A stretch of DNA of 48,535 nucleotides from positions 1-48,535 of the IMG/VR virus record IMGVR_UViG_3300019861_000001. The stretch is one strand, 5' to 3'. Below are positions 2,433-32,145 of the stretch, piece by piece. The translations under genes were made by a program, and so were the position numbers. This DNA comes from a virus. A model generated the notes under the pieces. The model was not told the origin of the DNA. It did no database searches and saw only the letters and a program-made list of their open reading frames with translations. How positions within the stretch are numbered: position 1 is the stretch's first letter; each line of letters opens with the position of its first letter.

Positions 2433-3789
2433 TGAGTATAGATTAGACGTTCTACCTATAGACAAAATAGAGTCTGTGGATAGATCTAGAACTGAGCTTG
2501 GAGATATAGATGAGTTAGTTAACTCATTCAAAAAGTATGGAATTATACAAACACTAGCAGTGTCAATAAACCAAGGTGCTACTGTAGATGGTAAACCCTA
2601 TCGTCTTTTAGTTGGTGGACGTAGATATGAAGCTGCTCTACGTGCAGGTATAACCGAGGTTCCTGTGAAGATATATACTGAAGAATTATCTGAAATGCAG
2701 ATGAAATCCATCGAGTTAGAGGAAAACCTCAGACGTAAAGACCTCACGTTTATTGAGAAATGTAAACTAACTCGTGAAATTCATGACTTGCAGATATCTC
2801 TATATGGGAGGAAAATTTCTACTTCGTCTGATGCTGTTGGTCATTCTCTACGTGATACAGCAGATATGCTAAACGTGAGTCATGCAACTGTAGTTAATGA
2901 CATGAAGTTAGCTAAGGCTATGGAACAGTTTCCTGAAGTAGACTGGGGAGGATGTAAGAATCAATCAGATGCCCTCAAAGTTCTTGCCAAGTTTGAGGAG
3001 CGTATAGTTAGGGCTGATCTATCAGATCGTGCATCTAAGATTATGAAATCCTCTAGAACACAGAAGATAATAGATTCCTATGTTCTAGGAGATTTCTTTG
3101 AGAAGGTCAAAGGAGTTCCATCTAACTCTATTGACTTAGTTGAGGTTGATCCTCCTTATGCAATAGACCTACCTAATATGAAAAAAGAACATACTATTAA
3201 CTATGGAGACTCTTATAACGAAATAGAGATGAGTGCTTATATCCCTTTCCTTGGTAAAGTTTTGGATGAGGCTTATAGAATTATGAAGGAGGATAGTTGG
3301 CTTATCTTCTGGTTCGGGCCTGAACCTTGGTTTGATATTGTTTATAATCTAATCAAACAAGCCAAGTTTGAAACTCGCAGACTCTGTGGTATATGGGCTA
3401 AAGCTACTGGACAGACTAAACATCCAGACATCTACCTCGCTCAGAGTTATGAGATGTTCTATTACGCCCGTAAAGGTAACGCAGTTATCAATATAGATAA
3501 ACGTGGTAGGAGTAACATCTTCGCTTTTGACCAAGTTTCTCCGACTAATAAAATTCATCCTACTGAACGTCCAGTTCCTTTAATGGAGGAACTCCTTCGT
3601 ACTTTTACGTGGGAAGGATCAAGGATTGTAGTTCCTTTCGCTGGTTCTGGAAACACCTTGAGAGCTGCATTTAATCTTAGTATGTTTCCTATAGGGTATG
3701 ACACATCCAAGGAGTATAAAGATAGTTTTACTGTTAGAGTCCTCAAAGAGGAGAAAGGAGAACAAGATGTTGAGAATAGTAGTAACTAA
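2425..3789 (+). CDS. ParB-N-domain / HTH / DNA methyltransferase fusion (N6-A or N4-C type)
   Basis: N-terminus YRLLVGGRRYEAALRAGITEVPV is ParB/Srx-like. Central HTH LRDTADMLNVSHATVVNDMKLAK. MTase motif IV VDPPY and motif I VVPFAGSGNT, in beta-class order. Confidence 0.8.
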   Translation: MVNEYRLDVLPIDKIESVDRSRTELGDIDELVNSFKKYGIIQTLAVSINQGATVDGKPYRLLVGGRRYEAALRAGITEVPVKIYTEELSEMQMKSIELEENLRRKDLTFIEKCKLTREIHDLQISLYGRKISTSSDAVGHSLRDTADMLNVSHATVVNDMKLAKAMEQFPEVDWGGCKNQSDALKVLAKFEERIVRADLSDRASKIMKSSRTQKIIDSYVLGDFFEKVKGVPSNSIDLVEVDPPYAIDLPNMKKEHTINYGDSYNEIEMSAYIPFLGKVLDEAYRIMKEDSWLIFWFGPEPWFDIVYNLIKQAKFETRRLCGIWAKATGQTKHPDIYLAQSYEMFYYARKGNAVINIDKRGRSNIFAFDQVSPTNKIHPTERPVPLMEELLRTFTWEGSRIVVPFAGSGNTLRAAFNLSMFPIGYDTSKEYKDSFTVRVLKEEKGEQDVENSSN

Positions 3790-9079: not shown

Positions 9080-12000
9080 CTACAGCCCCTCTCCTAATCC
9101 TTCTCCCAATCCTCCAAGACCAGAATCTAGACCATTAGGTTTCTTGGTCTTGCGAGTATAGAATAGATACTCCTTAAGATTCCCTGTCTCACTAAGTTTC
9201 TTTATATCCTTAATTCCTCTAAATCCAGGAACTAGTCCACCTAATCTCTCTTTAAAGGAATCCCAAGTAGAGTCAAGATTTCTACCAGACTGTATAGCCC
9301 TTAATAACTGTATAAAATCCCAGACTAAGTTAGGGACATATCCAAAGTTATTAGGCATAGCCCCTAGAAGTATACTACTCTTATAGTCTATCCCAGTAAA
9401 TTTATTTAGAGCCCAGAATACTAAGAACTGACCTGCTGTTCTAGCAGCTGCTTTTCCATCCCTTTCCCTTACCATTGACATAAGGTGATCTATATACGAT
9501 AGTGACCAACTAGAAAACTGTAGTCCTAGCTTTCCAGTTCTACCTTGCATAATCATAGGTAAGTCTATTCCATATAACCAAGCTGTGTTTGCCATAGCTT
9601 TCTCACCAGCTCGTATCCAATAAGAACGTGGGAGTCTAGGTCTACTAGTTTTAGCTTCGTAATATCCAGTAGAGAATCCATTTACAGCCCCTCCAAGGTC
9701 TATGTATTTATAAGCTACCATAAGCTGGTCTCTAATCTTTCTGGGTAACTCGCTAAACCCATGGATAGGTAATTCCTCAACTAAAAATTGAGATAGTCTA
9801 AGCTTTGCCATAGGAGAGTCAGCCATAGCATCTTTTATCTCCTGAGAACGAGAATGCATTACTCCTCTTGCGTATGCCTCAATACCATACTTGTTGACTA
9901 TTAACCACTGTTGTAATGAGTCACGAAGTGCTGGTCTAGGAGCTGCACCAAGATATGCAGCGTAACTTGCATTTAATAGAATATCTTCTACCTGCCTCAG
10001 TATCTTACTTCCTTCATCTTCCTTCATCCAGAGTTTTTTAGCTAAGTTCTTAACTGATCTATCTTTGGCTTTATCTACTCCCATAGGCCGTCTCATTACA
10101 GCCACATTAAAAAACTCCTTTACTAACTCCTGTTTATCAGGACTCATTTTCTTCTCTATTGGAGCTGCTTCCTTAATAGCCTCATTAAATACCCTAGTTT
10201 TAAGACCTCGTCTGTAGTATTCATTAAATAGCTTTCTCGCATCTAACTCTGTATCTACCAATCCCCCCTCAAATGCCTCTCTAAAATCAGCCCAGAACTC
10301 TAGCTCCTTCACACCTCTAGGGGAAAAGGAATACCTTATTGCAGCCTTCCTATTTTCTTCTGGTGTTCTCTTAGGACTATAATAGGGCTCTCTCTTAGGA
10401 GCCTGTATATCGTACTTGTCATAGAGATAGTTATATACTTTATTAAGTTTATTAAACGCATCTAATTCAAGCGGGGATAGTTCAGAAATAGGTAACTCCA
10501 ATCTTTGTGCTAAGGATATTCTTTTAAGTGCATCTGTAACATATTTCTTCCTTTGACGTCTAGGTATATTAGGATTATTTCTAATTGCTTTATCCAGAGT
10601 ATCAAATATCTCTCTATCAAGCTCATCCCCAACTCTAAGTCCCTCAATCCACCTCACCATTGCAGTTCTATAAGGTCTCATAACTTCATCACCAGCCCTA
10701 CGTCTCATAGGAAGTAACCATTTAGCTACCCCTAGTACATCTTCTGAAGGTCTAGTTTCATAAAACCTCTGAAGGTCAGCAATAACCCTATTGACGTGGG
10801 CATCAGTTAGTATATCACTATTCAAATCGAGTTTGGAATTCTCTATAAAATCACTGAGAGCATCTTCACTAACCTCATATCTATTCACCCCTTTCCTAAG
10901 TTCCTCCTTTACCTTTTGGGAGATATCAGGATTATTCAGTATTTCTCTCTCACTTTCTAATACTATATTTTCTATACTCATCAACTTAGCTTTAAGTAAC
11001 TGAGCCTCCTTGAAGGTGAGTTCACTTAGATCCTTGACATACCTGATACTATTGCTAGCTATCTTCCTAACATCCTTCTCAGTAAACCCTTTCATGTTAC
11101 CTAGACCTTTGAGGTCTTGAATATCAAGTTGAGTTGCCGGAGGTTCGTTCTTACGGGCACGTTCTATATACTCTCGAGTTAGTTTAGCATCAGCTGTCTC
11201 TGTTTTGAAGAGTCGTTTGGAGACGAACTCTGAGAGCTGTTGGAGACCTAACATATCAAGAGTAGTTGTTCCTACAATCTCTGGAAGATTCTCGTCAAAT
11301 ACTACATAGTTCCGTTCACCTGAGGAAGCTCCTATATAAGTGTTTCCTGGGATGCCTGCTTTGAGGAGGAGTTTAGAAGTCTTCTCCTTCCCTATACCAT
11401 ATATAAGTTCACTTTGAATATCCTCTCCAGTCATCTTAACAAAGTCTCTGACTTCTGAAGGTAACTTAGCTTGGTCTCTTAGTTGATCTACTAAGCGAGT
11501 TGCATCCAAATGCTGTAGATTCTGTTTAGAAATTTCACCTGAAGATACTTCCTTGACTATCTCTTTAGCTATAGCCTCACATTTATTAGAAGGAGCAGGC
11601 TTATCCAAATCCAACCACTCAGCATCTTCGGGAAGTTTGACTTCGTGGAGGACCCTTGATGATGTAGTATCTATAATACCTTTAGATGCTTCTTTTAATT
11701 TATTAATAACATCTACAGTCTCATTAATATATCCAGGAGTTGCAAGTTTATTATTTTCAAGTGTTTTAATATACTCTAGTTTTTTAGTCTCCTCTTTTAT
11801 CCATCTATTTATATGATCTCTAATATATTCATTTCTCTCTTTGCTAGCAGGAAGGCTTAGATATGCCTCATTCTTTATATACCTAAGCTTACCATCTTCA
11901 AGAAATTCAGATGCATCTTTTCCATTAATAGTAATATCTATATTTCTTCCAATACTCTTAGCATACCACTCCCCAACCTTCTTCTTACTCGTAAAGTAAT

Positions 12001-15000
12001 GTCCCCATCCCTTCATCTGAGCACCTTCACCACTACCAATAAACTCATTCTTAAACTTATCAAACTTACTCTTAGTCCCATGCCAAACTACCATCCCTCT
12101 CTCATCCGTGAAGATCTTCCATTTCTTAGCCTCGTTATAGGCCTGACGAACTAACCCCTTGACATCGTTCCAGAGGTCTCCTACTATTTCCTTCATCCGT
12201 GAGCGAAACTCTCCGTATTTCTGTTTTCCTTCTAGGAAGATTCCACGAGAAATAGTTCTAAGATTTTCTATAGAAGGTAGTTCTCTTAATTTTTTAGTGG
12301 CTGATTCATAGACTCTCCTCAACCCTTCTCCAGTCGCTCCACCTATATCAAACAATAAAGGAGCTCTATCACCTGTAGGTTTCTCATAAGGCTCACCTTC
12401 AACAGGTTCACGAACTACCTCGGCCGGATCTAGCTCCAATACCTCCTGTAACCCATAAGGTTGTTGGGCTTCCTCTATATCCACCTTCTCCTGCTCTGAC
12501 TGAACTTTCCTAGCTACCTCTAACATCTTGTTAGCAGCTTCATTATGTTTCTGGAATGTCTCAAAGTCAGGAAAGTCCTCTCTAGTGAGAGAGATAGCTT
12601 TGTTAAGATCTTCGATAACATCGTCTATGTTAGCCTTGCCAGTACTAACTTTCTGTAATTTCTTCTGTGTCTTCTGCAGAGTTTTGAGCGGATTCTTACG
12701 AGCTTCCTCTATGGTAATTTTTTTACCATAGGTTGCAGGTTTGGTAACTACGTCAATCTTCTCTTCACTAGTTAGTTCCTGTTCAGGTTTTTCAGCAACA
12801 GTGTTCCTACGATCTATCTCCGCCTGAACTATATCAGCCTGAGTAGGATCAATACTTCTAGCAGCATCTCTCATTGCTTCAAGATCATCAATAGAGAGCT
12901 TATCCATCTCCTCACGATATTGACGTTCGAACTCTAAGTCCTCGTCAGGGGGTAGTTCCTCTATAGGCTCTCTCTGTCTCTTTATATCCTGTATCTTCTC
13001 CTCAGTCTTTCTCTGTAGCTCTTCTCCTTTCTTTCTCAACTCCTCTTCCTTAGCTTTATACTCAGGAGTTTCTCTAATAACTGTGAGTTTCTCTTCTAAC
13101 CTTTCCTCAGTAGTTTTAGGAACTTCTTCCTTCGGCTTTATCTTCTCCTCAAAAATCTCAACAGTCTTCTTATCAAGTGACTCCCTGAGTTTCTGTGCAT
13201 CTAATACTGCCTGAGCAGCTTCACGTTTAACCTTCTCTACCTCTTCAGGTTTCTTAGCTACTTTCTCCTTCGCAATAGCATCCAGCTGTGCTAACCTCTT
13301 TTCTACTACTGCCCTCTTCTCAGGCCTCTCCTCTAACCACTTCGCCAACTCAACATTATTCATATCCATAGGAATAACATTGTCCATCAGGGTCTTGAGT
13401 ACTCTCTGCTTATCAGCAGATTTAAAAGCCTGATTACTCTTGGTAAGTCCAAGGTCCTGAAGAACTTGATAATAAACATCTTTACCAAGTAACTTCTTAA
13501 GTTCTTTAGCCTTATCTAGATATACTTTATCTTGTGTTCTACGTTTAGTAACTTCTATCTTCTCAGTTACTATAGCTTTTTCAGTCGTACGTCTTTCCAA
13601 TTCAGCCTTGGCAGATGGAACACTCTCAGACATTTCTTTGAGAGCAGTATCACTAACCCTATACTTTCCTGTCTCAGGATTTTTCTCAGAAAATACTCCA
13701 CCTACACCCTCAGCAGATGGAGTTACTGTGGGAGCCTCAGTAGCTTCCTTACCTTTAAGTATCTCCTCAGCAACGGTCTTAGCACTCTTCTCCAATCCTT
13801 GCTCTTTTAACTTCTTATTAGTATCTGCTTCCATCTTAGTCAACGTAGCTGGATACCCATGCCAGACCATCATAGTAGTAAAGATAGCATTACCTACTCT
13901 ATCATAGAAATCCATCTGTTTAGATGTATCAGTCCCTGGGACAGGAGTTAATAGTGCTGTTCCAACAGCTATTCTCATTAACCTATTGAATGGAAAAGCT
14001 CCCCTTGCTAACCCTACAGCTCCACCCATCCTAGCTCCTGAGACATATGCCTGAGTAGCAGTCTTAATTTTACCCTCAAGAGTAGGAGCTGTAAGGATAT
14101 TACCTAATTGTTCAGTTGTAGCTGCAGTACCAAACTGTACTGCCTCTCTAACTATACCTGTAGCTACTCTTCGTGCCGTAGTCTTAGCTAGGGCATTACT
14201 CAGTTGTGGAAAAGCTTTCTTTAAAACTTTAGTTGAGAACGCTAAAGCCATAGCAGGAGCGGATACACGTTTCAAAGGAGTTAAATATGCTGCACCTTGA
14301 GCTGCCATAGTACCCAACTTCTCCCACTTAACAGCCTTTTCAGGATTCCACTTATCAGGGAAGAATATATCATTTAGAGTCTGTCCTGGTTCTAGATCTT
14401 TGCCAGAAGCTATTACCATACCAGCCTGAGGTAACTGCCCAGTTGCTGTGTTGACAAACTGAGCAGCACTACGTTTGAGGAGGCCTTCGAAAGACGGCTC
14501 TTCAGTAGAACCTGTCTTTATATACTTCTGCATCTTACCTAAAATTTCTAACTGTTTAGGTGAATACATAGTATTACTAAAAGTCTCCTGTCCCCTCTGA
14601 GCTATCGATGGCTCATTTAAATAGCCACGAATATAGGCATCGTGAATAGCTATCTCATTAGCGTCTTTTCCATTCACATCTTCCCACCAAGACTTCTTTG
14701 CAGCTATTCTCTTCATCTCCTCAGGAGTATAGTTCTGTTTGAACTCTTCTCTTAACTTAGTCCATTCTGGGTCTCTACTCATTCCATGAATCAGATCCCC
14801 ATAAACTGCCTTTCTTAATAACTCAGGATTATTCCTAAGCTCATCACTATACACCTCTACTACATTTTTTCCTCCTTCAGTAGGATGCTCCCATCCAGGT
14901 ATCCCAGTCTCATCAGAAGGCCAGTACTCCAGTCCTCCCATCTTACTACCTATCTTAGTTCTTTCAGGAGAAGCTAAAATAACATCAGTGTCTTCTAGTG

Positions 15001-15319
15001 AGTGGGTCTTCTTAAGTCCAGGATTAGCCTCCAGAACTTGAGCTAGTATATCTCTAGGACTAGGCCCCATATACTCAGCCTCTGTCTTAGGAAATACATT
15101 AGGACCTACTGCTCCTCTTGCTGCAACTTCCAGCACGGAAGGACCTGGAGGAGGAGCTAATGCCTCTTTAAGAAACGTTCCTGTTTTTGAAAGGAGCGAA
15201 GGCTGTTCCTCTTCCTCCACTCCTAAATCTAACTTAGGAATACCATACTTACTGAGCACACCAGAGGTTTCTTTACTGTCTTCAATAGTAGCAATCTGGT
15301 ACTTATCTAGCACACCCAT
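9080..15319 (-). CDS. Giant (2079 aa) polyvalent internal-virion/ejected protein with ART-like module
   Basis: Last gene of the late arm, after two Gly-rich virion proteins. Gly/Ala hydrophobic segment (about aa 330-500). Lys/Glu coiled coil (about aa 500-1000). Module VVWHGT..F..F..GSGEGAQMKGWGHYF ... NYVVFDE (about nt 11280-12100). Hydrophobic C-terminus ending GLGGLGEGLGEGL. The ORF itself is certain; the function is inferred. Confidence 0.6.
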   Translation of the reverse strand: MGVLDKYQIATIEDSKETSGVLSKYGIPKLDLGVEEEEQPSLLSKTGTFLKEALAPPPGPSVLEVAARGAVGPNVFPKTEAEYMGPSPRDILAQVLEANPGLKKTHSLEDTDVILASPERTKIGSKMGGLEYWPSDETGIPGWEHPTEGGKNVVEVYSDELRNNPELLRKAVYGDLIHGMSRDPEWTKLREEFKQNYTPEEMKRIAAKKSWWEDVNGKDANEIAIHDAYIRGYLNEPSIAQRGQETFSNTMYSPKQLEILGKMQKYIKTGSTEEPSFEGLLKRSAAQFVNTATGQLPQAGMVIASGKDLEPGQTLNDIFFPDKWNPEKAVKWEKLGTMAAQGAAYLTPLKRVSAPAMALAFSTKVLKKAFPQLSNALAKTTARRVATGIVREAVQFGTAATTEQLGNILTAPTLEGKIKTATQAYVSGARMGGAVGLARGAFPFNRLMRIAVGTALLTPVPGTDTSKQMDFYDRVGNAIFTTMMVWHGYPATLTKMEADTNKKLKEQGLEKSAKTVAEEILKGKEATEAPTVTPSAEGVGGVFSEKNPETGKYRVSDTALKEMSESVPSAKAELERRTTEKAIVTEKIEVTKRRTQDKVYLDKAKELKKLLGKDVYYQVLQDLGLTKSNQAFKSADKQRVLKTLMDNVIPMDMNNVELAKWLEERPEKRAVVEKRLAQLDAIAKEKVAKKPEEVEKVKREAAQAVLDAQKLRESLDKKTVEIFEEKIKPKEEVPKTTEERLEEKLTVIRETPEYKAKEEELRKKGEELQRKTEEKIQDIKRQREPIEELPPDEDLEFERQYREEMDKLSIDDLEAMRDAARSIDPTQADIVQAEIDRRNTVAEKPEQELTSEEKIDVVTKPATYGKKITIEEARKNPLKTLQKTQKKLQKVSTGKANIDDVIEDLNKAISLTREDFPDFETFQKHNEAANKMLEVARKVQSEQEKVDIEEAQQPYGLQEVLELDPAEVVREPVEGEPYEKPTGDRAPLLFDIGGATGEGLRRVYESATKKLRELPSIENLRTISRGIFLEGKQKYGEFRSRMKEIVGDLWNDVKGLVRQAYNEAKKWKIFTDERGMVVWHGTKSKFDKFKNEFIGSGEGAQMKGWGHYFTSKKKVGEWYAKSIGRNIDITINGKDASEFLEDGKLRYIKNEAYLSLPASKERNEYIRDHINRWIKEETKKLEYIKTLENNKLATPGYINETVDVINKLKEASKGIIDTTSSRVLHEVKLPEDAEWLDLDKPAPSNKCEAIAKEIVKEVSSGEISKQNLQHLDATRLVDQLRDQAKLPSEVRDFVKMTGEDIQSELIYGIGKEKTSKLLLKAGIPGNTYIGASSGERNYVVFDENLPEIVGTTTLDMLGLQQLSEFVSKRLFKTETADAKLTREYIERARKNEPPATQLDIQDLKGLGNMKGFTEKDVRKIASNSIRYVKDLSELTFKEAQLLKAKLMSIENIVLESEREILNNPDISQKVKEELRKGVNRYEVSEDALSDFIENSKLDLNSDILTDAHVNRVIADLQRFYETRPSEDVLGVAKWLLPMRRRAGDEVMRPYRTAMVRWIEGLRVGDELDREIFDTLDKAIRNNPNIPRRQRKKYVTDALKRISLAQRLELPISELSPLELDAFNKLNKVYNYLYDKYDIQAPKREPYYSPKRTPEENRKAAIRYSFSPRGVKELEFWADFREAFEGGLVDTELDARKLFNEYYRRGLKTRVFNEAIKEAAPIEKKMSPDKQELVKEFFNVAVMRRPMGVDKAKDRSVKNLAKKLWMKEDEGSKILRQVEDILLNASYAAYLGAAPRPALRDSLQQWLIVNKYGIEAYARGVMHSRSQEIKDAMADSPMAKLRLSQFLVEELPIHGFSELPRKIRDQLMVAYKYIDLGGAVNGFSTGYYEAKTSRPRLPRSYWIRAGEKAMANTAWLYGIDLPMIMQGRTGKLGLQFSSWSLSYIDHLMSMVRERDGKAAARTAGQFLVFWALNKFTGIDYKSSILLGAMPNNFGYVPNLVWDFIQLLRAIQSGRNLDSTWDSFKERLGGLVPGFRGIKDIKKLSETGNLKEYLFYTRKTKKPNGLDSGLGGLGEGLGEGL
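12709..12731. repeat. 23-bp palindrome family copy inside the giant ORF: CTATGGTAATTTTTTTACCATAG
   Basis: 9-bp perfect arms. Read in frame as YGKKITI on the minus strand. Confidence 0.85.
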
Positions 15320-21991: not shown

Positions 21992-22711
21992 CTACACCTC
22001 TATCTCAGTTATTGCAGTTACTTCTTCTTCGGCTATATCCTTACCAATCTCAAGGACATCGTAGGCTATAGCATCTAGCATATTTTTGAGTTTATACCTA
22101 TCTTTGTAGAACAACTCGAGTTGATATACAGCTGCTTTTATAAGAACATCTGGAAACATAAGAGTCCAAATATTAGTATCAGCATCAAGGGAAAGAAGAG
22201 GTTGATAGAAGTCTCCTACTATCTCTACATCTATCTGTTCATCAGTTGCGGGCAGAACTATGATTCCTCTAAAATCCTTAGAGTTTGCTAGGGTATAGTT
22301 GTAGAATACCCCAGTAGCACCTTTATCAGTTGCGTCTACCTCACGTAGTTTAGCTGGGCAATAATATAGAGGTTCTCCATTATCTGATGCAGAGATAGTC
22401 TCTGGATATTCCCCTTTCAACCATTCCCAACTCTTCTTCTCTAACTGATAGCGTTCATCTGAAGTATTAATCCAGACGTCAGTTATAAACCTACAGCGTT
22501 TTTGGAAGGAAACGTAGTATCCTCCAACAGCTAATGTCTCCCATATTCTACCTTCTGAGTCAGGAAGTGTCCCTACAATTCGTTCCAGCATATCCTGACC
22601 AGCTTGGATATAGTAGTTAGCTCCATTGTCTACCCAAGCTGTAGTATCCACTACCAAGTCATACCTACCACTTATTTTAACAAATTGAGTTCTTACACTA
22701 AGTAAGTTCAT
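21992..22711 (-). CDS. Hypothetical virion protein (head-tail adaptor candidate by position)
   Basis: 239-aa ORF, two genes downstream of the capsid gene. Confidence 0.4.
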   Translation of the reverse strand: MNLLSVRTQFVKISGRYDLVVDTTAWVDNGANYYIQAGQDMLERIVGTLPDSEGRIWETLAVGGYYVSFQKRCRFITDVWINTSDERYQLEKKSWEWLKGEYPETISASDNGEPLYYCPAKLREVDATDKGATGVFYNYTLANSKDFRGIIVLPATDEQIDVEIVGDFYQPLLSLDADTNIWTLMFPDVLIKAAVYQLELFYKDRYKLKNMLDAIAYDVLEIGKDIAEEEVTAITEIEV

Positions 22712-22720
22712 CAGTATCTC

Positions 22721-22945
22721 CTAATAAACTAAATCAAGTTCCATTCTTACTTCAACATTCTCCACAGGTCCTGACCTTTCAGCAACTGGCTCAGGAGCAG
22801 TCTCGTTATCCCTCTTTCTATCCATACTAATATAACTAGCCCTCACTCCACACTCCTTCTCAAACCCCTGAACCAGTTTAAGAATAGCTCCCTCTAACTC
22901 TATCTTTTTCTTCTTAACATCTTCAATGGTGAGCTTCTTATTCAT
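22721..22945 (-). CDS. Hypothetical small protein
   Basis: 74-aa ORF. Its SD AAAGGAG overlaps the outer arm of the palindrome at 22954-22976. Confidence 0.6.
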   Translation of the reverse strand: MNKKLTIEDVKKKKIELEGAILKLVQGFEKECGVRASYISMDRKRDNETAPEPVAERSGPVENVEVRMELDLVY

Positions 22946-22953
22946 TGTCGCTC

Positions 22954-22976
22954 CTTTGGTAAATTTTTTACCATAG
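22954..22976. repeat. 23-bp palindrome family copy CTTTGGTAAATTTTTTACCATAG
   Basis: Lies between the capsid gene stop (23015) and ATG 22945. A GC hairpin GGAGGG..CCCTCC sits immediately upstream on the minus strand. Confidence 0.9.
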
Positions 22977-23014
22977 GAGGGCAGCTTATAGCCACCCTCC
23001 TCTGGAAAATAAAG

Positions 23015-24139
23015 TTATACAATATTATCTAACCCTACCCCATTGAGATAGCCCCAGCCAGTTGGGAAATGGAACTCAATGCCCATCTCAGTCAGGTATT
23101 CCTCGTTTGTCCCATCCTTCCTGGTATATCCAGTATTCTGTTTCTCATTGTCAGGATAGAAAGTAGTATCAGTAATGATCCTACTTTTCAGATTTGCCGG
23201 CTCATAGATAACCATACTATTCCTATTAGCCGCTTCATAAGAGAACAGAGGATGAGTTTTAATGTTGATCTTTCCAAATGGAGTTACCCACTCAATAACT
23301 TGAATCCCATAGGATTTAGTCTGAGGAGTAAATGTCCATTGACCATAGGTCTTAGCGATCTTGTTAAGACCCAGAAGTGCTCCACTACCAGCGAGACAGA
23401 GTTTCTCAGCACTACCATACCTGAACATAAGTTCAAGATAGGTATCAATCCAGTCCTCACCACTGGCAATCCACGTGTCTCCTGAGTAAGTAGCGTTGAG
23501 TGTGAAGTCATTGACATTAGCAGACGCATAGGTCTTGATAATATCAACTAGCCCTCGAGTTGTTCTCTCAGGCTTACCATTAGCCCCAATATTCTCAGTC
23601 ATGATACCCCAGATAGATGCTTTCTCCATCTCGATAGAATGGAGTTCCAAACACTCACGTTTCATCTCTTTATATGCATCTCCAGTCCTTAACTTAGTCT
23701 GCCGAGCAGTACGAGTAATATCCAGAGATGTTCTAAAGATCTGAGTATAATTGTAGATCTTGACAGGGTCATAACTGATAGCATCTGGCATAGTCGCACC
23801 CTCAGGGTTGATATTACCAATTACTAACAGTCTGTCGGCATCACTAATATCATGACTTTGAGCGGTAGTAGTGTCAGCCTCCAATAGTTTAACTGTTATA
23901 CAAGAACTAGCGCCATTCTTCTGGACAGCCATAACCTTGGCATTGACATCTACCTCATAATCACTCTGATCACGCAGAAGAACTTGATGTCCAGCTCTAA
24001 AGTGATCTGAGTCTGCTTCAGAACATTTGATGTAGAGAACAGAGCCAGCAACACCACCTGATACATATGCAGCAGTCATAGCCGCATCAGTATAGCGACC
24101 AGTAATAGTTGCTGCTTGAGTAGGTAGAGTCTTAGTCCA
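23015..24139 (-). CDS. Major capsid protein, exon 2
   Basis: The frame stays open 60 nt upstream of the track ATG (24079) back to WTKTLPTQAATITGRYTDAA, with no SD before 24079. It joins in frame to exon 1. The junction is uncertain by 1-5 nt. Confidence 0.7.
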   Translation of the reverse strand, partial: WTKTLPTQAATITGRYTDAAMTAAYVSGGVAGSVLYIKCSEADSDHFRAGHQVLLRDQSDYEVDVNAKVMAVQKNGASSCITVKLLEADTTTAQSHDISDADRLLVIGNINPEGATMPDAISYDPVKIYNYTQIFRTSLDITRTARQTKLRTGDAYKEMKRECLELHSIEMEKASIWGIMTENIGANGKPERTTRGLVDIIKTYASANVNDFTLNATYSGDTWIASGEDWIDTYLELMFRYGSAEKLCLAGSGALLGLNKIAKTYGQWTFTPQTKSYGIQVIEWVTPFGKINIKTHPLFSYEAANRNSMVIYEPANLKSRIITDTTFYPDNEKQNTGYTRKDGTNEEYLTEMGIEFHFPTGWGYLNGVGLDNIV

Positions 24140-25007
24140 CCCGGACTATCATTAAACTTTCATTTAATGCTGGACTATATCTTAACCCTTAGTCAAGGGT
24201 TTGACATTATAGTCTCTGAAGGTTTCATTGCATCTAAGTATTTATGGATTCTACTTGATTTTCTCATAACATGGAAGAAACATCCACTATCTATAAACGA
24301 GCGTATATTAGGTTTAATAACATACATAGTAGTCCCATGCCCAGAAATCTGCTCATGAATCTTTCCTACTTTTACTCCTAGTTTCTGGAGAAGTCTTGTT
24401 ACATCTTCTACTAGAGTTTTTATTCTTGCAGCATATCCAAGTCTCCACGATAGCCCAAATCTAGAACCTGGATTCTTATTCTCTACTATTGTCCCATCTG
24501 TATCAAACAATCCAGCTACGAAATTTAATCTAGCATTTTTACTAGCCCTGAAGATCTCGTCTGCAAGAAACAGTTTCTCTCTAATAAAATAATGAAAGAA
24601 ATCATAAATAAGCTCGTTATTAATAGCTAATGAGTACATAGTAGTTTTGTTAGGATTTACATAACTTGAGACAGTGTAGTTACCACCAAATAGTACATTA
24701 ATCTCCTCACATACTCTTACTACACATTCTAAATCCATATTAGCTATCATAACATTGTTGTTAGTTAACATTCTTTCACCATTCCAAGTAACATACTTCT
24801 TAACACTTCCATCACCTAATAAAGCTCCTATAGAGTATCCAACTACTTCGATGTATTTATCCATAACTTGCAATGAATTTCCCTGCTGATTGTCCATTGT
24901 GTTATCCTCCTTAGTTTTACGCTTTGGTCAAGAGAGGCTTTAGGATTTTCCAGCAATTTCTGTCATTTATTCGACGGGATTTCGCCCGAAGCAACCAGTG
25001 AACTCTA
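24140..25007 (-). mobile_element. Group-I-like intron (~868 nt) carrying a LAGLIDADG homing endonuclease ORF
   Basis: Interrupts the capsid ORF. P1-like pairing: exon CAACT (25007-25011) with intron GGTTG (24992-24996). Long-range helices bracket the ORF: TGCTGG/CCAGCA (24950-24955 / 24168-24173) and TCTTGACC/GGTTAAGA (24926-24933 / 24180-24187). The intron ends in G. Confidence 0.65.
24193..24897 (-). CDS. LAGLIDADG homing endonuclease (double-motif)
   Basis: Motifs IGALLGDGSV and FVAGLFDTDGTI. SD AAGGAGG 8 nt upstream. Confidence 0.85.
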   Translation of the reverse strand: MDNQQGNSLQVMDKYIEVVGYSIGALLGDGSVKKYVTWNGERMLTNNNVMIANMDLECVVRVCEEINVLFGGNYTVSSYVNPNKTTMYSLAINNELIYDFFHYFIREKLFLADEIFRASKNARLNFVAGLFDTDGTIVENKNPGSRFGLSWRLGYAARIKTLVEDVTRLLQKLGVKVGKIHEQISGHGTTMYVIKPNIRSFIDSGCFFHVMRKSSRIHKYLDAMKPSETIMSNP

Positions 25008-25172
25008 GTTGAACTCAGGATCATCTACCTTCTCTGACCCCAATTTAGACATTACTGCAGTTAAAGGAGCCGAGCCGTTAGGGTATTCATACAGAATAAC
25101 CTCTCTCCAGTTCTTCGGCCTCTGGTCAGTAGCCCAGTCTCCAGTTCCACGCATTCCTAAAAATCCAGCCAT
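25008..25172 (-). CDS. Major capsid protein, exon 1 (55 codons)
   Basis: ATG 25172 has SD AGGAGG. MAGFLGMRGTGDWATDQRPKNWREVILYEYPNGSAPLTAVMSKLGSEKVDDPEFN is, from memory, the conserved N-terminus of an HK97-fold podovirus capsid family. It runs into an in-frame TAG at 25005-25007. Confidence 0.7.
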
Positions 25173-25173
25173 T

Positions 25174-25485
25174 TTAAATACCTCCTATAAATTTTTCGTA
25201 GAGAGTAAAACTATCATCAGATAGCTTATTCTCTTTATCAAGTTTTTTTAGTTGATTAACTATGATACCATTAACAACATCACCAAAGTCAAAGTCCTTC
25301 ATTACACCAGCCTGGAGATTCCACTTAACTCGATCACCTTCCTGCACAAACATTAGGAGTTTATGTTCCTCCTCGCTAAAAGATAAATCTTCTCGGAGCT
25401 TACGCATCAGTTTAAGAGTTGTAAAGTTTCCCTCACGAGGGAGAATACTAAGTAATACTAATCTTTCCATTACATCAAGTTGCAT
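25174..25485 (-). CDS. Hypothetical protein
   Basis: 103-aa ORF directly upstream of capsid exon 1. Confidence 0.65.
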   Translation of the reverse strand: MQLDVMERLVLLSILPREGNFTTLKLMRKLREDLSFSEEEHKLLMFVQEGDRVKWNLQAGVMKDFDFGDVVNGIIVNQLKKLDKENKLSDDSFTLYEKFIGGI

Positions 25486-25510
25486 AGTGAAATCTCCTTT
25501 ATGTTAAAGT

Positions 25511-27064
25511 TTAAGCATGGAGCGTGTCATATAAGGCTATATAATACGCTACGTTATTAATAAGAACTTTAAGAGCTGCATCAGCTCCAACAGTTGTACC
25601 GTCTGGTGCCACAGCGGGAACCAGAGCATTGGCAACTACTGGTCCTGTACCAGCTGCAGGAAGAGCCATAAGATTTGTGGATACAGCACTTGCCATATCT
25701 ATTGCTGTAGTAACTGTTCCAGCAATACCAATAGCATTAACAACAGCTGCTCCGCCATCAACTGCAATTTTAAGTCCATTATCCATAGACGTTACTGCAG
25801 GATAGACCTCAATCATCACTCCATCGAACTGTCCAGTTACAGTAGCAGCTCCATCAATATGGAAGTGGCCAGCGTTAATGGTAGATGCAACAAAGTTATC
25901 TGCACCTACATCTAACTTAGCAGATAATGCAGACATAGCTGTGATTGCTCCAGTGCCCTGATGTCTTGCCCAGGGCTGACTGGCATAAGCAGCTGAAGCT
26001 ACAGAGTTATTAGCTCCACCTGTAACACCTACATATGCCCGTGAAGCATGGCCTACCAATGTAGTCCCAGAGTCACCACTACCTATCATATTGACTTTAT
26101 TGTAAACACCTATCAAGTCATCACAGTCCCCTGCCCCTGCAGAGTGGTTAATGTTGATAGTTTCTCCAATTACTGTAGCTCCAGGGTTGGTATTAAGAAC
26201 CATAGGAACTGCCACTGACCCCATATTAAAGAGGCCTACTCCAGTAGTGGTTTCATCAAACTCCAAAGTAATCTTTGTCTCAGCTGTAGCTACTGTAGTA
26301 CCCAAAGAAAGAAGTGAGTCGTTTGCTAACTTCAATCCAGTAGCACAGGCACCTATATTAATTCCAGTGGTCATAGTCCCACTAAGACTAATACCAGTAG
26401 TACATCCCATAGTAATGTTAAGACCTGTTGTTAGTACACAAGTCCCACTCATATCAGCATCATCTTCGATTTTAATACCATTACCATAGGTTCTACTACC
26501 TCCATCCATATCTCCAAATCTCAGAATAATCCCATGAACCTTGGTATAATCAGCTAACTGCCCACCAGTTACCTTCCCGAGAAATGGAGTGGCTTCAGTA
26601 GTAATTGTTTGTGCAGCTGAACTAGCATCCCAGGTAATTTCACTCTGGATACCATAGAGTTTACCTATAGTAATTCCAAGAGCTCCCTTGGCATAGCCAT
26701 AGACTAATGCTCCCCAAACACTTCCAGTGTTTACAGCATTAGCTACACCATAGATCTGTGCACCATAGATACTTGCAGCCGCATTGGCCTCCCTATTTTC
26801 AACCCTCAAATAAATACCTTTAAACTCAGAGAGGGTATAGACGTCTGCCCAATCAGACACATGATATCTGAGTTCAAAAGCCTCTGACCATTGAAATACA
26901 GAGGCATCAATACTAATTGAACTTCCTCCTGCTGTCCCCGTAGCTATACGTGCAGTAGAGAGAACTTGAGCGTCTTGAGCATTGATACCGAGACTAGTCG
27001 CAATAGAGATATGCCCGTTATCATACTCAATACCAGCCCTCAGAAGAAATCCACGCCAGCTCAT
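25511..27064 (-). CDS. Gly/Ala/Thr-rich repeat protein in the head module (decoration/fibre candidate)
   Basis: 517-aa ORF with SD GGAGGTGG. Repetitive small-residue stretches (TTGLNITMGCTTGISLSGTMTTGINIGACATG). Confidence 0.4.
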   Translation of the reverse strand: MSWRGFLLRAGIEYDNGHISIATSLGINAQDAQVLSTARIATGTAGGSSISIDASVFQWSEAFELRYHVSDWADVYTLSEFKGIYLRVENREANAAASIYGAQIYGVANAVNTGSVWGALVYGYAKGALGITIGKLYGIQSEITWDASSAAQTITTEATPFLGKVTGGQLADYTKVHGIILRFGDMDGGSRTYGNGIKIEDDADMSGTCVLTTGLNITMGCTTGISLSGTMTTGINIGACATGLKLANDSLLSLGTTVATAETKITLEFDETTTGVGLFNMGSVAVPMVLNTNPGATVIGETININHSAGAGDCDDLIGVYNKVNMIGSGDSGTTLVGHASRAYVGVTGGANNSVASAAYASQPWARHQGTGAITAMSALSAKLDVGADNFVASTINAGHFHIDGAATVTGQFDGVMIEVYPAVTSMDNGLKIAVDGGAAVVNAIGIAGTVTTAIDMASAVSTNLMALPAAGTGPVVANALVPAVAPDGTTVGADAALKVLINNVAYYIALYDTLHA

Positions 27065-30564: not shown

Positions 30565-32145
30565 TTAGATTATCCTCCAATTCTCATAGGGTTTTTCGAA
30601 ATCCAGTTCTTCATATTCTTTTTCAGGGTCTTCCCCCATATCAGGAGGGTCGAAGTAGTAAGCCAACTCATCCATTATCTTGTTAATATAAGCAGCTGCA
30701 TCCATCACGTCCCACAACTTGGAACGAGGAAAGGAACGAAGTTGAGTCTCAAGAGGCCCACAGTTGTTCTTATTATGATACATATAGCCGAGTTTATATA
30801 GAGGAGCAAGATTAGCTATTCTTCCTTCTTTCTTCCCAATAGCCTGAAGTTCAATATATGTAGGGTGAACGTTACGAACTCTCATTTCGTTTTCAATAGG
30901 TTGAGAGATGAACTGGTGAAGAGAAGTTACTTCAACTCCCAATATCATACTTTTGTATCGTAATAGTTGCCCAAACATCATGTTGTATAGGGCATCAGGT
31001 CTAACCCGCCTAGATTCTATTGCCCGAACGAAGATTTTGTGAGATTCTCTATCAACTGCTATTGTCAAAACTGCACTCTCAGCAGAGTGAAGTTGGACAG
31101 TTTTAGCTGGATCACAAATAGTAACATGGAGTAGGCGAGAGGTAGGGATTTTTTCGTCTACAATAACTCCAGTCTCAGTTACTGACTTAACAACTAGTTC
31201 GTCTCCATAATCTTCAAAATAGTGAAAATACTCCTCCTTAAAAACCGCATCCTCAATGGATATAGGAAGATTCATACGCTCCATATAGAAGAGATCCATT
31301 AGACCTTTCCTACGATGTTCTTCTACTTCTTCCTTTATTTGTGTAGTAGTCATATAGTTTACATCATAAGATTCATAGTTCTCATTGCAGATAGAAAGAC
31401 GAATAGATGACCACTCAGGAGAATCAAGAAGAAGTTGGAGTAATGAGTCCTCATGTTTAATAGTATCAATATAGATAATAGTAGGAGGTTTCCCATACAT
31501 ATCTTCAGTTTTCATTACGTCAGAGAAAAACCACTCCTTTTGTTTCTGACGTAGATCCTCATTTCGTAGATCTTCTTTATTTTCTAGATCATCAATGATG
31601 ATTAGATCTGGACGATAGTTTGCCCAGTTCAATCCACGAATCTGCTGACCCATACCACGAGGGAGAACAAAAGTAGTACCAAAGGCTACCCACGCAAGTT
31701 TACTAAATGTGTCGTCTACTTCACCCACATCACTGATCTTAATACTGCCAAATAGAGACCTTACGGTTTTATTAGTTAATAGTGTACGTTTCATATTCTC
31801 AGTTTGCATTTCAGCTAGAGTAGCACTGTTTGAGAGATAGACTATAAAATGATAGTCTCTAAATAGTATTCCTTTATTAGCTATAGTACGTGCAATAGAA
31901 GTCTTTCCTAATCCACGTGGAGCAGCTATAGCTTTTTTGCTGTTGGAATTAGATATGGTCTCAAATATCTTATCATGAAGCATAGAGAAAGGAGCTGAAA
32001 AGATCTCAGGAAAAATAGCTTTACACATGAACTTAGTATCTATATAACAATTATGTAAGATACTTTTAGTTCTTTGAGTGAGATCACCTTCAACCTGTGG
32101 TAAAATTTTTACCATAGGTTCAGTCGTTTGGTACGTGTTTTCCAT
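30565..32145 (-). CDS. terL: Terminase large subunit
   Basis: Walker A AAPRGLGKTS and Walker B LIIIDDLE, with a C-terminal nuclease-sized domain. 526 aa. Confidence 0.85.
   Translation of the reverse strand: MENTYQTTEPMVKILPQVEGDLTQRTKSILHNCYIDTKFMCKAIFPEIFSAPFSMLHDKIFETISNSNSKKAIAAPRGLGKTSIARTIANKGILFRDYHFIVYLSNSATLAEMQTENMKRTLLTNKTVRSLFGSIKISDVGEVDDTFSKLAWVAFGTTFVLPRGMGQQIRGLNWANYRPDLIIIDDLENKEDLRNEDLRQKQKEWFFSDVMKTEDMYGKPPTIIYIDTIKHEDSLLQLLLDSPEWSSIRLSICNENYESYDVNYMTTTQIKEEVEEHRRKGLMDLFYMERMNLPISIEDAVFKEEYFHYFEDYGDELVVKSVTETGVIVDEKIPTSRLLHVTICDPAKTVQLHSAESAVLTIAVDRESHKIFVRAIESRRVRPDALYNMMFGQLLRYKSMILGVEVTSLHQFISQPIENEMRVRNVHPTYIELQAIGKKEGRIANLAPLYKLGYMYHNKNNCGPLETQLRSFPRSKLWDVMDAAAYINKIMDELAYYFDPPDMGEDPEKEYEELDFEKPYENWRII
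32095..32117. repeat. 23-bp palindrome family copy CTGTGGTAAAATTTTTACCATAG inside the TerL 5' end
   Basis: Encodes PMVKILPQ of TerL on the minus strand. Lies 3 nt past the stop of the upstream gene (32120). Confidence 0.85.

Follow-up and report, generated by a model that had tools for sequence, protein, structure and literature searches.

Group I introns that interrupt phage capsid genes and carry LAGLIDADG endonuclease genes are already known, and the intron described here, which divides the major capsid gene in IMG/VR virus record IMGVR_UViG_3300019861_000001, is a further example. The whole 48,535-nt stretch of this record was analyzed (hereafter the window), and all capsid and intron features lie on its minus strand. 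A preliminary description had proposed that the capsid gene is split by a group-I-like intron with a LAGLIDADG open reading frame (ORF), and this proposal is now backed by a subthreshold Rfam match, by covariation, by Pfam and by contiguous homologs.

A capsid-gene group I intron is known in the lactococcal phage Tuc2009. In mycobacteriophage LittleE (Cluster J), a capsid-gene group I intron is associated with a LAGLIDADG-type gene, and its splicing was demonstrated by reverse transcription-polymerase chain reaction (RT-PCR) (PMC3706429). As in the window, the LittleE intron resides in the gene for the major capsid subunit, a U ends exon 1, a G ends the intron, and the intron is present in only some related genomes; in contrast to the window, the LittleE endonuclease is encoded on the opposite strand and is a 177-aa, I-CreI-like protein with a single motif (PMC3706429). 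The capsid families and hosts are unrelated, and splicing was established by RT-PCR for LittleE, whereas that of the window's intron is predicted from its sequence. The parts of a study of Delta/Zeta crAss-like phages on which we draw describe the major capsid protein gene and other core genes as broken by group I introns encoding endonucleases, LAGLIDADG enzymes included (PMC7886860). These are likewise metagenomic phages with a broken major capsid protein gene, and some of their genes carry several introns, as does one locus related to the window's (L095, see below); however, their capsids belong to another family, and in those same parts of the study the introns are recognized through protein domains, with no RNA covariation analysis (PMC7886860).

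DNA similarity to deposited phages was found only with AR9/PBS1 and Lak phages, over ~70-84 nt of the P4-P5a region of the ribozyme core. Introns in the virion RNA polymerase beta-subunit gene of Bacillus phages AR9/PBS1 are 77-79% identical to the window's intron over ~70 nt of this region, with the AR9 match lying in a gene whose annotation joins 6 pieces, but the host gene is another one, the neighboring endonuclease is of the HNH type, and only part of the core is similar. A megablast search of the 2.4-kb region against deposited phages gave no match, and a tblastn search of the endonuclease against them gave one weak match only, in the terminase gene of an Aphanizomenon phage.

The td gene of phage T4 contains a group I intron whose endonuclease ORF, encoding I-TevI, is looped out of P6; an in-frame stop codon lies just after its 5' splice site, and translation of I-TevI is restrained by RNA structure around the ribosome-binding site. 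The window's intron resembles td in having a P6-looped ORF, an early in-frame stop codon and an endonuclease ribosome-binding site placed in RNA structure, where similar control would be expected. It differs in lacking the P7.1/P7.2 elements that T4 introns have, and its ORF also runs through P4', P6, P7 and P3' and into P8. Moreover, I-TevI is a GIY-YIG enzyme, and GIY-YIG or HNH endonucleases are typical of classical phage introns, in contrast to the LAGLIDADG endonuclease found here.

The split capsid gene and its splice junction

The interrupted gene comprises the following features, given in window coordinates.

25172..25007, minus strand: exon 1 of the major capsid gene, codons 1-55 and the first base of Trp56
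25006..24142, minus strand: 865-nt group I intron, its first base an A (25006) and its last the terminal G, or omega-G (24142)
24141..23015, minus strand: exon 2 of the major capsid gene, from the last two bases of Trp56 to residue 430 and the stop codon
25172..25005, minus strand: 55-codon ORF, with an AGGAGG Shine-Dalgarno (SD) sequence at 25186..25181, 8 nt upstream of its ATG
24079..23015, minus strand: 354-aa ORF, its frame open upstream for 22 codons, to a TAG at 24148-24146 that is followed by S G W T K...
24897..24193, minus strand: LAGLIDADG homing endonuclease ORF, 234 aa, double-motif (Pfam, PDB match, AlphaFold2, Foldseek)

Joining exon 1 to exon 2 yields a 1293-nt coding sequence for 430 aa, the same length as in five intron-less alleles from related contigs (L001-L005), and the spliced coding sequence shares 82% DNA identity with L001. 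The joined protein matches the SU10 family PF17236 in Pfam (105.6 bits, cut-off 24.1, E=4.4e-30, residues 37-422), with Crass_capsid as a weak second match. A search with this protein found 3453 homologs, the best of which is 90% identical. Almost all of the ~120 listed are uninterrupted proteins of ~430 aa, and not products of two naturally separate genes, a case that the preliminary description had considered. Exon 1 aligns with residues 1-55 of uninterrupted homologs without a break (100% collinear), neither exon contains a frameshift, and uninterrupted relatives are 87-90% identical to the joined protein. Judged by these homologs, the two ORF pieces are the halves of one SU10-type (PF17236) major capsid protein. 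The strong SD sequence reported earlier for the 55-codon ORF is present, and the 354-aa ORF is open upstream as stated, though for 22 rather than 20 codons.

The exact junction was fixed by alignment to intron-less homologs. Across the uninterrupted site, the DNA of L001-L005 runs ...TTCAACTGGTGGAC..., and it reads ...GA(A/G)T(T/A)CAACTGGTGGAC..., which encodes EFNWWT. The window instead reads ...GAGTTCAACT|AGAGTT......TAGTCCG|GGTGGACT..., and because the border bases differ on each side, the intron borders cannot be shifted. Since the intron-less alleles read EFNWWT at this point, the true join is 25007|24141, that is, AACT|GGTGG, and it falls inside the first Trp codon of DDPEFNWWTK. This join conforms to the U(-1) rule as well as to the terminal-G rule, and excision restores a continuous ORF in the same register as in the intron-less alleles. 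The corresponding cDNA junction would be GAGTTCAACT|GGTGGACT, a spliced reading also given as GAGTTCAACT|GGTGGACTAAG. That a group I intron is spliced at 25007|24141 is, in our judgment, very probable.

Two other joins had been put forward previously, and both are rejected. EFN/WTK omits the second Trp, which is invariant in homologs (every one aligned contains EFNWWTK), and PEL/WTK omits the same residue and also alters the conserved Phe-Asn. With the join placed within a codon (AACT|GG), the supposed problem of a C rather than a U at position -1 does not exist. The insert measures 865 nt instead of 868, the product is 430 aa instead of 429, and the terminal G that had been noted is real but lies at 24142, not where the earlier joins put it.

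Phage genes split by free-standing endonuclease genes are known from T4-like phages, and both pieces of the window's capsid gene are ORFs, the 3' piece having an internal ATG at 24079. It is nevertheless barely credible that the 55-aa and ~354-aa pieces are made separately and assembled without RNA splicing. Starting at the ATG at 24079, which has no SD sequence, would forfeit 20 conserved codons upstream of it (WTKTLPTQ...), and the stop codon of the 5' piece arises only through the insertion, given that this TAG (25007-25005) consists of the last exon base and the first two intron bases. In addition, a covarying group I core flanks the endonuclease ORF, and removing exactly the intron yields a coding sequence that agrees in length and sequence with the intron-less alleles. 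We reject a naturally split gene and retain the group I intron as the preferred reading.

A search of the whole window revealed no second capsid gene and no second copy of the endonuclease. Because there is no second capsid gene in the window, the supply of capsid protein must, we infer, depend on splicing, as had been suggested before; the locus would then be a further well-documented example of RNA splicing being required for an essential late structural gene. There is also a consequence for annotation, in that gene callers report a 55-aa ORF and a truncated 354-aa protein, which the 430-aa product and the exact junction correct. The window's own exon-2 ORF stands in public protein collections as a truncated capsid entry (P0008), an annotation error caused by the intron.

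A group I intron core overlapped by an endonuclease gene

The search with group I models that had been proposed for this locus gave a match below the gathering score. The generic Rfam model Intron_gpI (RF00028; curated gathering score 50 bits) matches 24304..24151 with 36.4 bits (E=4.7e-7 in a search of the region), and a second, partial match at 24955..24848 (17.6 bits) covers P4-P6; the 705-nt endonuclease ORF splits the core seen by the model. Intron_gpI is the only RNA-family match in the whole window (E=9.1e-6 at window scope). Relatives of the intron score 24-36 bits with the same model (27-36 bits for L006, L010, L011, L086 and L092; 25 bits, E=0.01, for L009).

These relatives were obtained by scanning viral and metagenome contigs with the endonuclease family, which gave loci L006-L014, L046 and L086-L115. 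From these, 22 related introns were delimited, and ORF-deleted versions of 19 were aligned (A3). Helices were drawn by hand on the window sequence, and pairs were then counted on this alignment. Standard pairs are formed in 94.2% of cells, versus 34-48% for slid-partner controls, and compensatory changes occur in 37 of 59 pairs. The covariation score is 0.526 versus 0.185 for shuffles, with 0 of 500 shuffles reaching the observed value. P2, P3, P5a, P6a, P8 and P9 are each backed by 5-7 covarying pairs. The ORF-deleted intron of the window also folds better than shuffles (z=-3.2), and this fold recovers P1, P4, P6a, P7, P8 and P9; it served as a rough check only, as a minimum-free-energy fold cannot show P3 together with P7 (a pseudoknot). 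The elements of the core, all on the minus strand, are as follows.

25011..25005 with 24998..24992: P1, 7 bp, exon CAACU plus intron AG paired with CUGGUUG
25004..24997: P10 guide AGUUCACU, pairing with the first 8 bases of exon 2, GGUGGACU (24141..24134)
24988..24975: P2 hairpin CGGG(C)-GAAA-(U)CCCG with a GAAA loop, 5/5 pairs with compensatory changes
24965..24961: P3 5' strand UGACA, pairing with UGUCA at 24206..24202, 5/5 pairs compensatory, 98.9% of cells paired
24955..24950: P4 5' strand UGCUGG, pairing with UCAGCA at 24889..24884 (endonuclease codons 3-5), invariant in 19/19 introns
24945..24943: P5 5' strand UCC, its 3' strand at 24895..24893
24937..24930 with 24912..24906: P5a, CCUcUCUU paired with AAGGAGG, 5/7 pairs compensatory, 97% of cells paired
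24883..24881 with 24222..24220: P6, GGG paired with CCU, the 3' strand inside the last endonuclease codons
24877..24869 with 24232..24224: P6a, UUCAUUGCA paired with UGCAAUGAA, 9 nt, 100% complementary, 7/8 pairs compensatory (helix 7)
24219..24202: J6/7 UCA, P7 5' strand G[A]GACUAU (24216..24209), AA, and P3 3' strand UGUCA (24206..24202)
24201..24184: P8 hairpin AACCCUU-GACU-AAGGGUU, 5/7 pairs compensatory
24183..24172: J8/7 AAGAU and P7 3' strand AUAGUCC (24178..24172), placed by the Rfam match and the alignment
24169..24150: P9 hairpin CAUUAAAU-GAAA-GUUUAAUG, 7/8 pairs compensatory

Several of these elements had been noticed before. The P1-like pairing of CAACT with GGTTG is present (25011..25007 with 24996..24992) and extends to 7 bp, a long-range helix, the perfect 9-bp P6a, closes the ORF, and the hairpins AACCCTT/AAGGGTT and CATTAAA/TTTAATG correspond to P8 and P9. 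The direct repeat GAGTTCA at the 5' junction takes on a different meaning: its intron copy, AGUUCACU, acts as the P10 guide by pairing with the start of exon 2. In P1, the splice-site pair is a U.G wobble between U25007 and a G of the guide GGUUG (24996..24992). P7 has the classical bulged A, at 24215, and shows a compensatory change in L104; a second one, in L013, was seen by eye. For P5, pairing of UCC with a GGA inside the endonuclease SD sequence was considered and dropped, as covariation in a distant clade (ACC/GGU, CCG/CGG, CCC/GGG) backs the GGA of AUGGAC. L2 and L9 are GAAA tetraloops, and P7.1/P7.2 are absent, features reminiscent of small IC3-type introns. Together, these data support the view that the intervening sequence represents a group I intron with a double-motif LAGLIDADG gene.

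As a separate observation, the 3' tail of the intron, AUAGUCCG (24149..24142), repeats the P7 3' strand AUAGUCC and could pair with the P7 5' strand. The repeat is also present in L092 but not in other family members.

The earlier identification of a double-motif LAGLIDADG ORF holds. The 234-aa protein matches Pfam LAGLIDADG_3 (42.5 bits, cut-off 22.5, E=7.8e-11), with GALLGDG as motif 1 (D29) and AGLFDTDG as motif 2 (D134), and homologs fall into 80 clusters. Residues G28, D29, G30, D132, D134 and G135 are invariant in 29 homologs. A sequence match in the PDB to PI-PfuI (E=4.6e-6) is joined by Foldseek matches of an AlphaFold2 model (pLDDT 91.2, pTM 0.87) to PI-PfuI (E=5.7e-11) and I-DmoI (E=1.3e-10), and the model predicts the pseudo-dimeric alpha-beta-beta-alpha-beta-beta-alpha fold. 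The modeled domain thus resembles the monomeric, two-motif LAGLIDADG fold of I-DmoI and PI-PfuI, with a target-normalized TM-score of 0.74 for I-DmoI, whereas sequence identity is 20-24% and the two enzymes are archaeal, I-DmoI coming from an rRNA intron and PI-PfuI from an intein.

Inteins and some group II introns can contain LAGLIDADG domains as well, and the best PDB match is itself an intein endonuclease. We nevertheless reject both of these identities for the insertion. An intein is incompatible with the TAG across the 5' junction and with an endonuclease ORF in another frame than exon 1 (275 nt offset), and no Hint domain was found with Pfam. For a group II intron, the region has no Rfam match at E<=10 and no reverse transcriptase domain.

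The endonuclease ORF does not simply sit in a loop of the ribozyme. It overlaps P5', P4', P6, P6a, J6/7, P7, P3' and half of P8. Because the ORF runs through the core helices, the noncoding part of the intron is only ~160 nt (109 nt before the ORF and 51 nt after it). The earlier figure of ~160 nt is therefore right for the noncoding sequence but not for the core, since the functional ribozyme measures ~250 nt. The N termini (MDNQQGN) and C termini (PSETIM) of the endonucleases are unusually conserved across the family, and their codons overlap P5'/P4'/P6 and J6/7-P7-P3', respectively. The stop codon UGA (24195..24193) sits at the loop of P8.

The translation signals of the endonuclease are likewise built into ribozyme helices. 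The sequence AAGGAGG serves both as its SD sequence and as the 3' strand of P5a, while in P5 the 3' strand starts with the G of the start codon and takes in two bases more (24895..24893; AUGGAc). Because the SD sequence is in P5a and the AUG in P5, the folded ribozyme should mask both and limit endonuclease translation. In a scan of 22600-25600 for a separate endonuclease transcript, promoter-like sites were no commoner than in shuffles, and no terminator was found.

Proposed splicing and homing

A pathway consistent with these features can be outlined. A late transcript would run through exon 1, intron and exon 2 as part of a late operon, and the intron RNA would fold into a compact core of P1-P2-P3-P4-P5/P5a-P6/P6a-P7-P8-P9, in which the guide would hold the end of exon 1 by P1, with U.G at the splice site, and the start of exon 2 by P10. 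Two guanosine-dependent transesterifications would then join AACU to GGUGG and create the 430-aa capsid ORF. Ribosomes on unspliced RNA would stop at the UAG across the 5' splice site and so be kept out of the ribozyme. The endonuclease ORF is threaded through the P6a loop, and a little enzyme would be made from unfolded RNA or from the excised intron.

In a mixed infection, this enzyme is predicted to cleave the uninterrupted motif in related phages, L001 for example, whereupon repair would copy the intron in (homing). The candidate target in L001, AGACGATCCTGAATTCAACTGGTGGACGAAGACG, has 2 mismatches in the central 26 nt, and a near-identical target is present in both L001 and L003. Relatives of the window are polymorphic for presence or absence of the intron, and the GC fraction is 0.349 in the intron versus 0.47 and 0.43 in the exons; the low intron GC and the patchy distribution fit a mobile element.

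Several points weigh against this account. Splicing, GTP dependence and endonuclease activity are predictions from the DNA. The Rfam score is below the gathering score, which is a cut-off of the database rather than a trait of the RNA itself, and P4 and most of P7 are invariant across the 19 introns and therefore uninformative for covariation. The structure was drawn before pairs were counted, which favors the drawn helices over the slid controls; compensatory changes in other sequences do not depend on how the window structure was drawn. The contig is a metagenomic assembly and need not represent a viable genome. Finally, some group I introns with LAGLIDADG ORFs need the encoded protein as a maturase, such that "self"-splicing may be only partly true.

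Two alternatives were weighed. A metagenomic contig and a subthreshold Rfam score might also be encountered if the intron were decayed or nonfunctional in a defective genome and the capsid gene a pseudogene, but we regard this as very improbable. The window sequence keeps every helix intact, the endonuclease ORF has its full length, and the exons, which lack frameshifts, are 87-90% identical to intact homologs. Furthermore, the same endonuclease protein occurs in NCBI and JGI and the exon-2 ORF in three sources (NCBI, JGI and Logan), each in a cluster of three member sequences.

The second alternative is that the intron is spliced but not autonomous, with the LAGLIDADG protein or a host factor needed as maturase; the protein may in that case have lost DNA cleavage, and there would be no homing. 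We consider this unlikely, even though the core is small with few peripheral elements, the overlap of the ORF with eight core elements indicates tight coevolution of protein and RNA, and Foldseek also matches the LAGLIDADG maturases bI3 (rank 37) and I-AniI (1p8k, rank 45). Invariance of both catalytic Asp residues and the flanking Gly residues in 29 family members points to retained nuclease function, and GAAA tetraloops in L2 and L9 are found in small autonomous introns as well. The presence/absence polymorphism, together with spread over capsid genes whose products are only 52-63% identical to the window's, points to recent mobility. We continue to favor an intron that would splice by means of its own core and that encodes a putative homing endonuclease.

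Related introns and their splice positions

The capsid gene is split at the same motif in nearly all related loci with enough flanking sequence, the exceptions being L113 and L114; further loci are split there as well, not all of which could be delimited. Within 6 nt of the motif GAG TTY AAY TGG TGG, the related introns use four splice positions, assigned from the restored conserved peptide, the terminal-G rule and the U.G pair in P1.

Site A: after GAGT, 9 loci
Site B: after GAGTT, 4 loci
Site C: after GAGTTY, 6 loci
Site D: after AAYT, the window and 3 loci

All 22 delimited introns end in G, a uniformity to be read with the fact that the terminal-G rule itself was used to choose between sites B and C. 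An in-frame stop codon lies 0-25 nt from the 5' splice site in 22/22 introns. The P1 and P10 guides fit the exon sequence of each intron. The P1 guide covaries with the exon (uaacu/GGUUA, ucauu/GGUGA or GAUGA, gaguuu/GAACUC, aguau/GUACU, cagu/GGCUG), and the P10 guides of other introns at the window's site are GUCCACU, GUCUACU or CCACU, which differ only by U/C opposite G.

A bootstrapped neighbor-joining tree of the endonucleases does not track the splice positions: the site-C intron L008 groups with the site-B introns L009 and L088 (95%) and not with the main site-C clade (99%). Because L008 groups with site-B introns, the splice position has shifted one or more times in the closer clade. 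Exactly four nucleotides, AAYT, separate sites C and D, and LAGLIDADG enzymes leave a 4-nt 3' overhang. One tentative interpretation, which we take to be distinctly less likely than not, is that this family of capsid introns has repeatedly shifted its insertion point within one motif, with its guides being rewritten, and that the positions may record a staggered cut and re-insertion on either side of the overhang. If true, endonuclease geometry would have driven a succession of "intron sliding" events in nature, and these could be dated from the family. In our view, the main weight of the finding rests on this putative retargeting at the level of the family and on the overlap of ORF and ribozyme. 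The 22 delimited introns with their four adjacent splice positions form a ready data set on retargeting of introns and endonucleases, and the endonucleases of the family are candidates for new meganuclease specificities of the 20-bp class.

The L008 locus (2389-2400, 3250-3262) has a further peculiarity. Its site-C intron starts AATT|AG, mimicking the exon end of site D, and its exon 2 starts AACT. The 4-nt AAYT is thus in effect present on both sides of the intron, as a filled-in 4-nt overhang would leave it.

Two loci or groups of loci depart from the common arrangement. In L095 (Ga0180009_10010548, 379-2300), two group I introns seem to interrupt the capsid gene. One is at the EFNWW motif, as usual, and an extra one, after residue ~32, contains a different LAGLIDADG ORF (575-1270) and an Intron_gpI match (1029-1305, 29.4 bits). 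In L113 and L114 (OFRG01000244 and OFRM01000148, 498-2248), a 30%-identical relative of the endonuclease resides in a gene not matching this capsid family; two Rfam group I matches are present there (498-669 and 2114-2248), and the first intron carries a GIY-YIG-like ORF (690-1217).

Elsewhere in the window, a scan of the whole sequence found no tRNA genes. Downstream in the structural module, a 2079-aa ORF (9080-15319, minus strand) has only a weak PHROG match, by which its function is not named. This late module also contains the capsid gene, the gene for the large terminase (30565..32145) and a portal-like gene.

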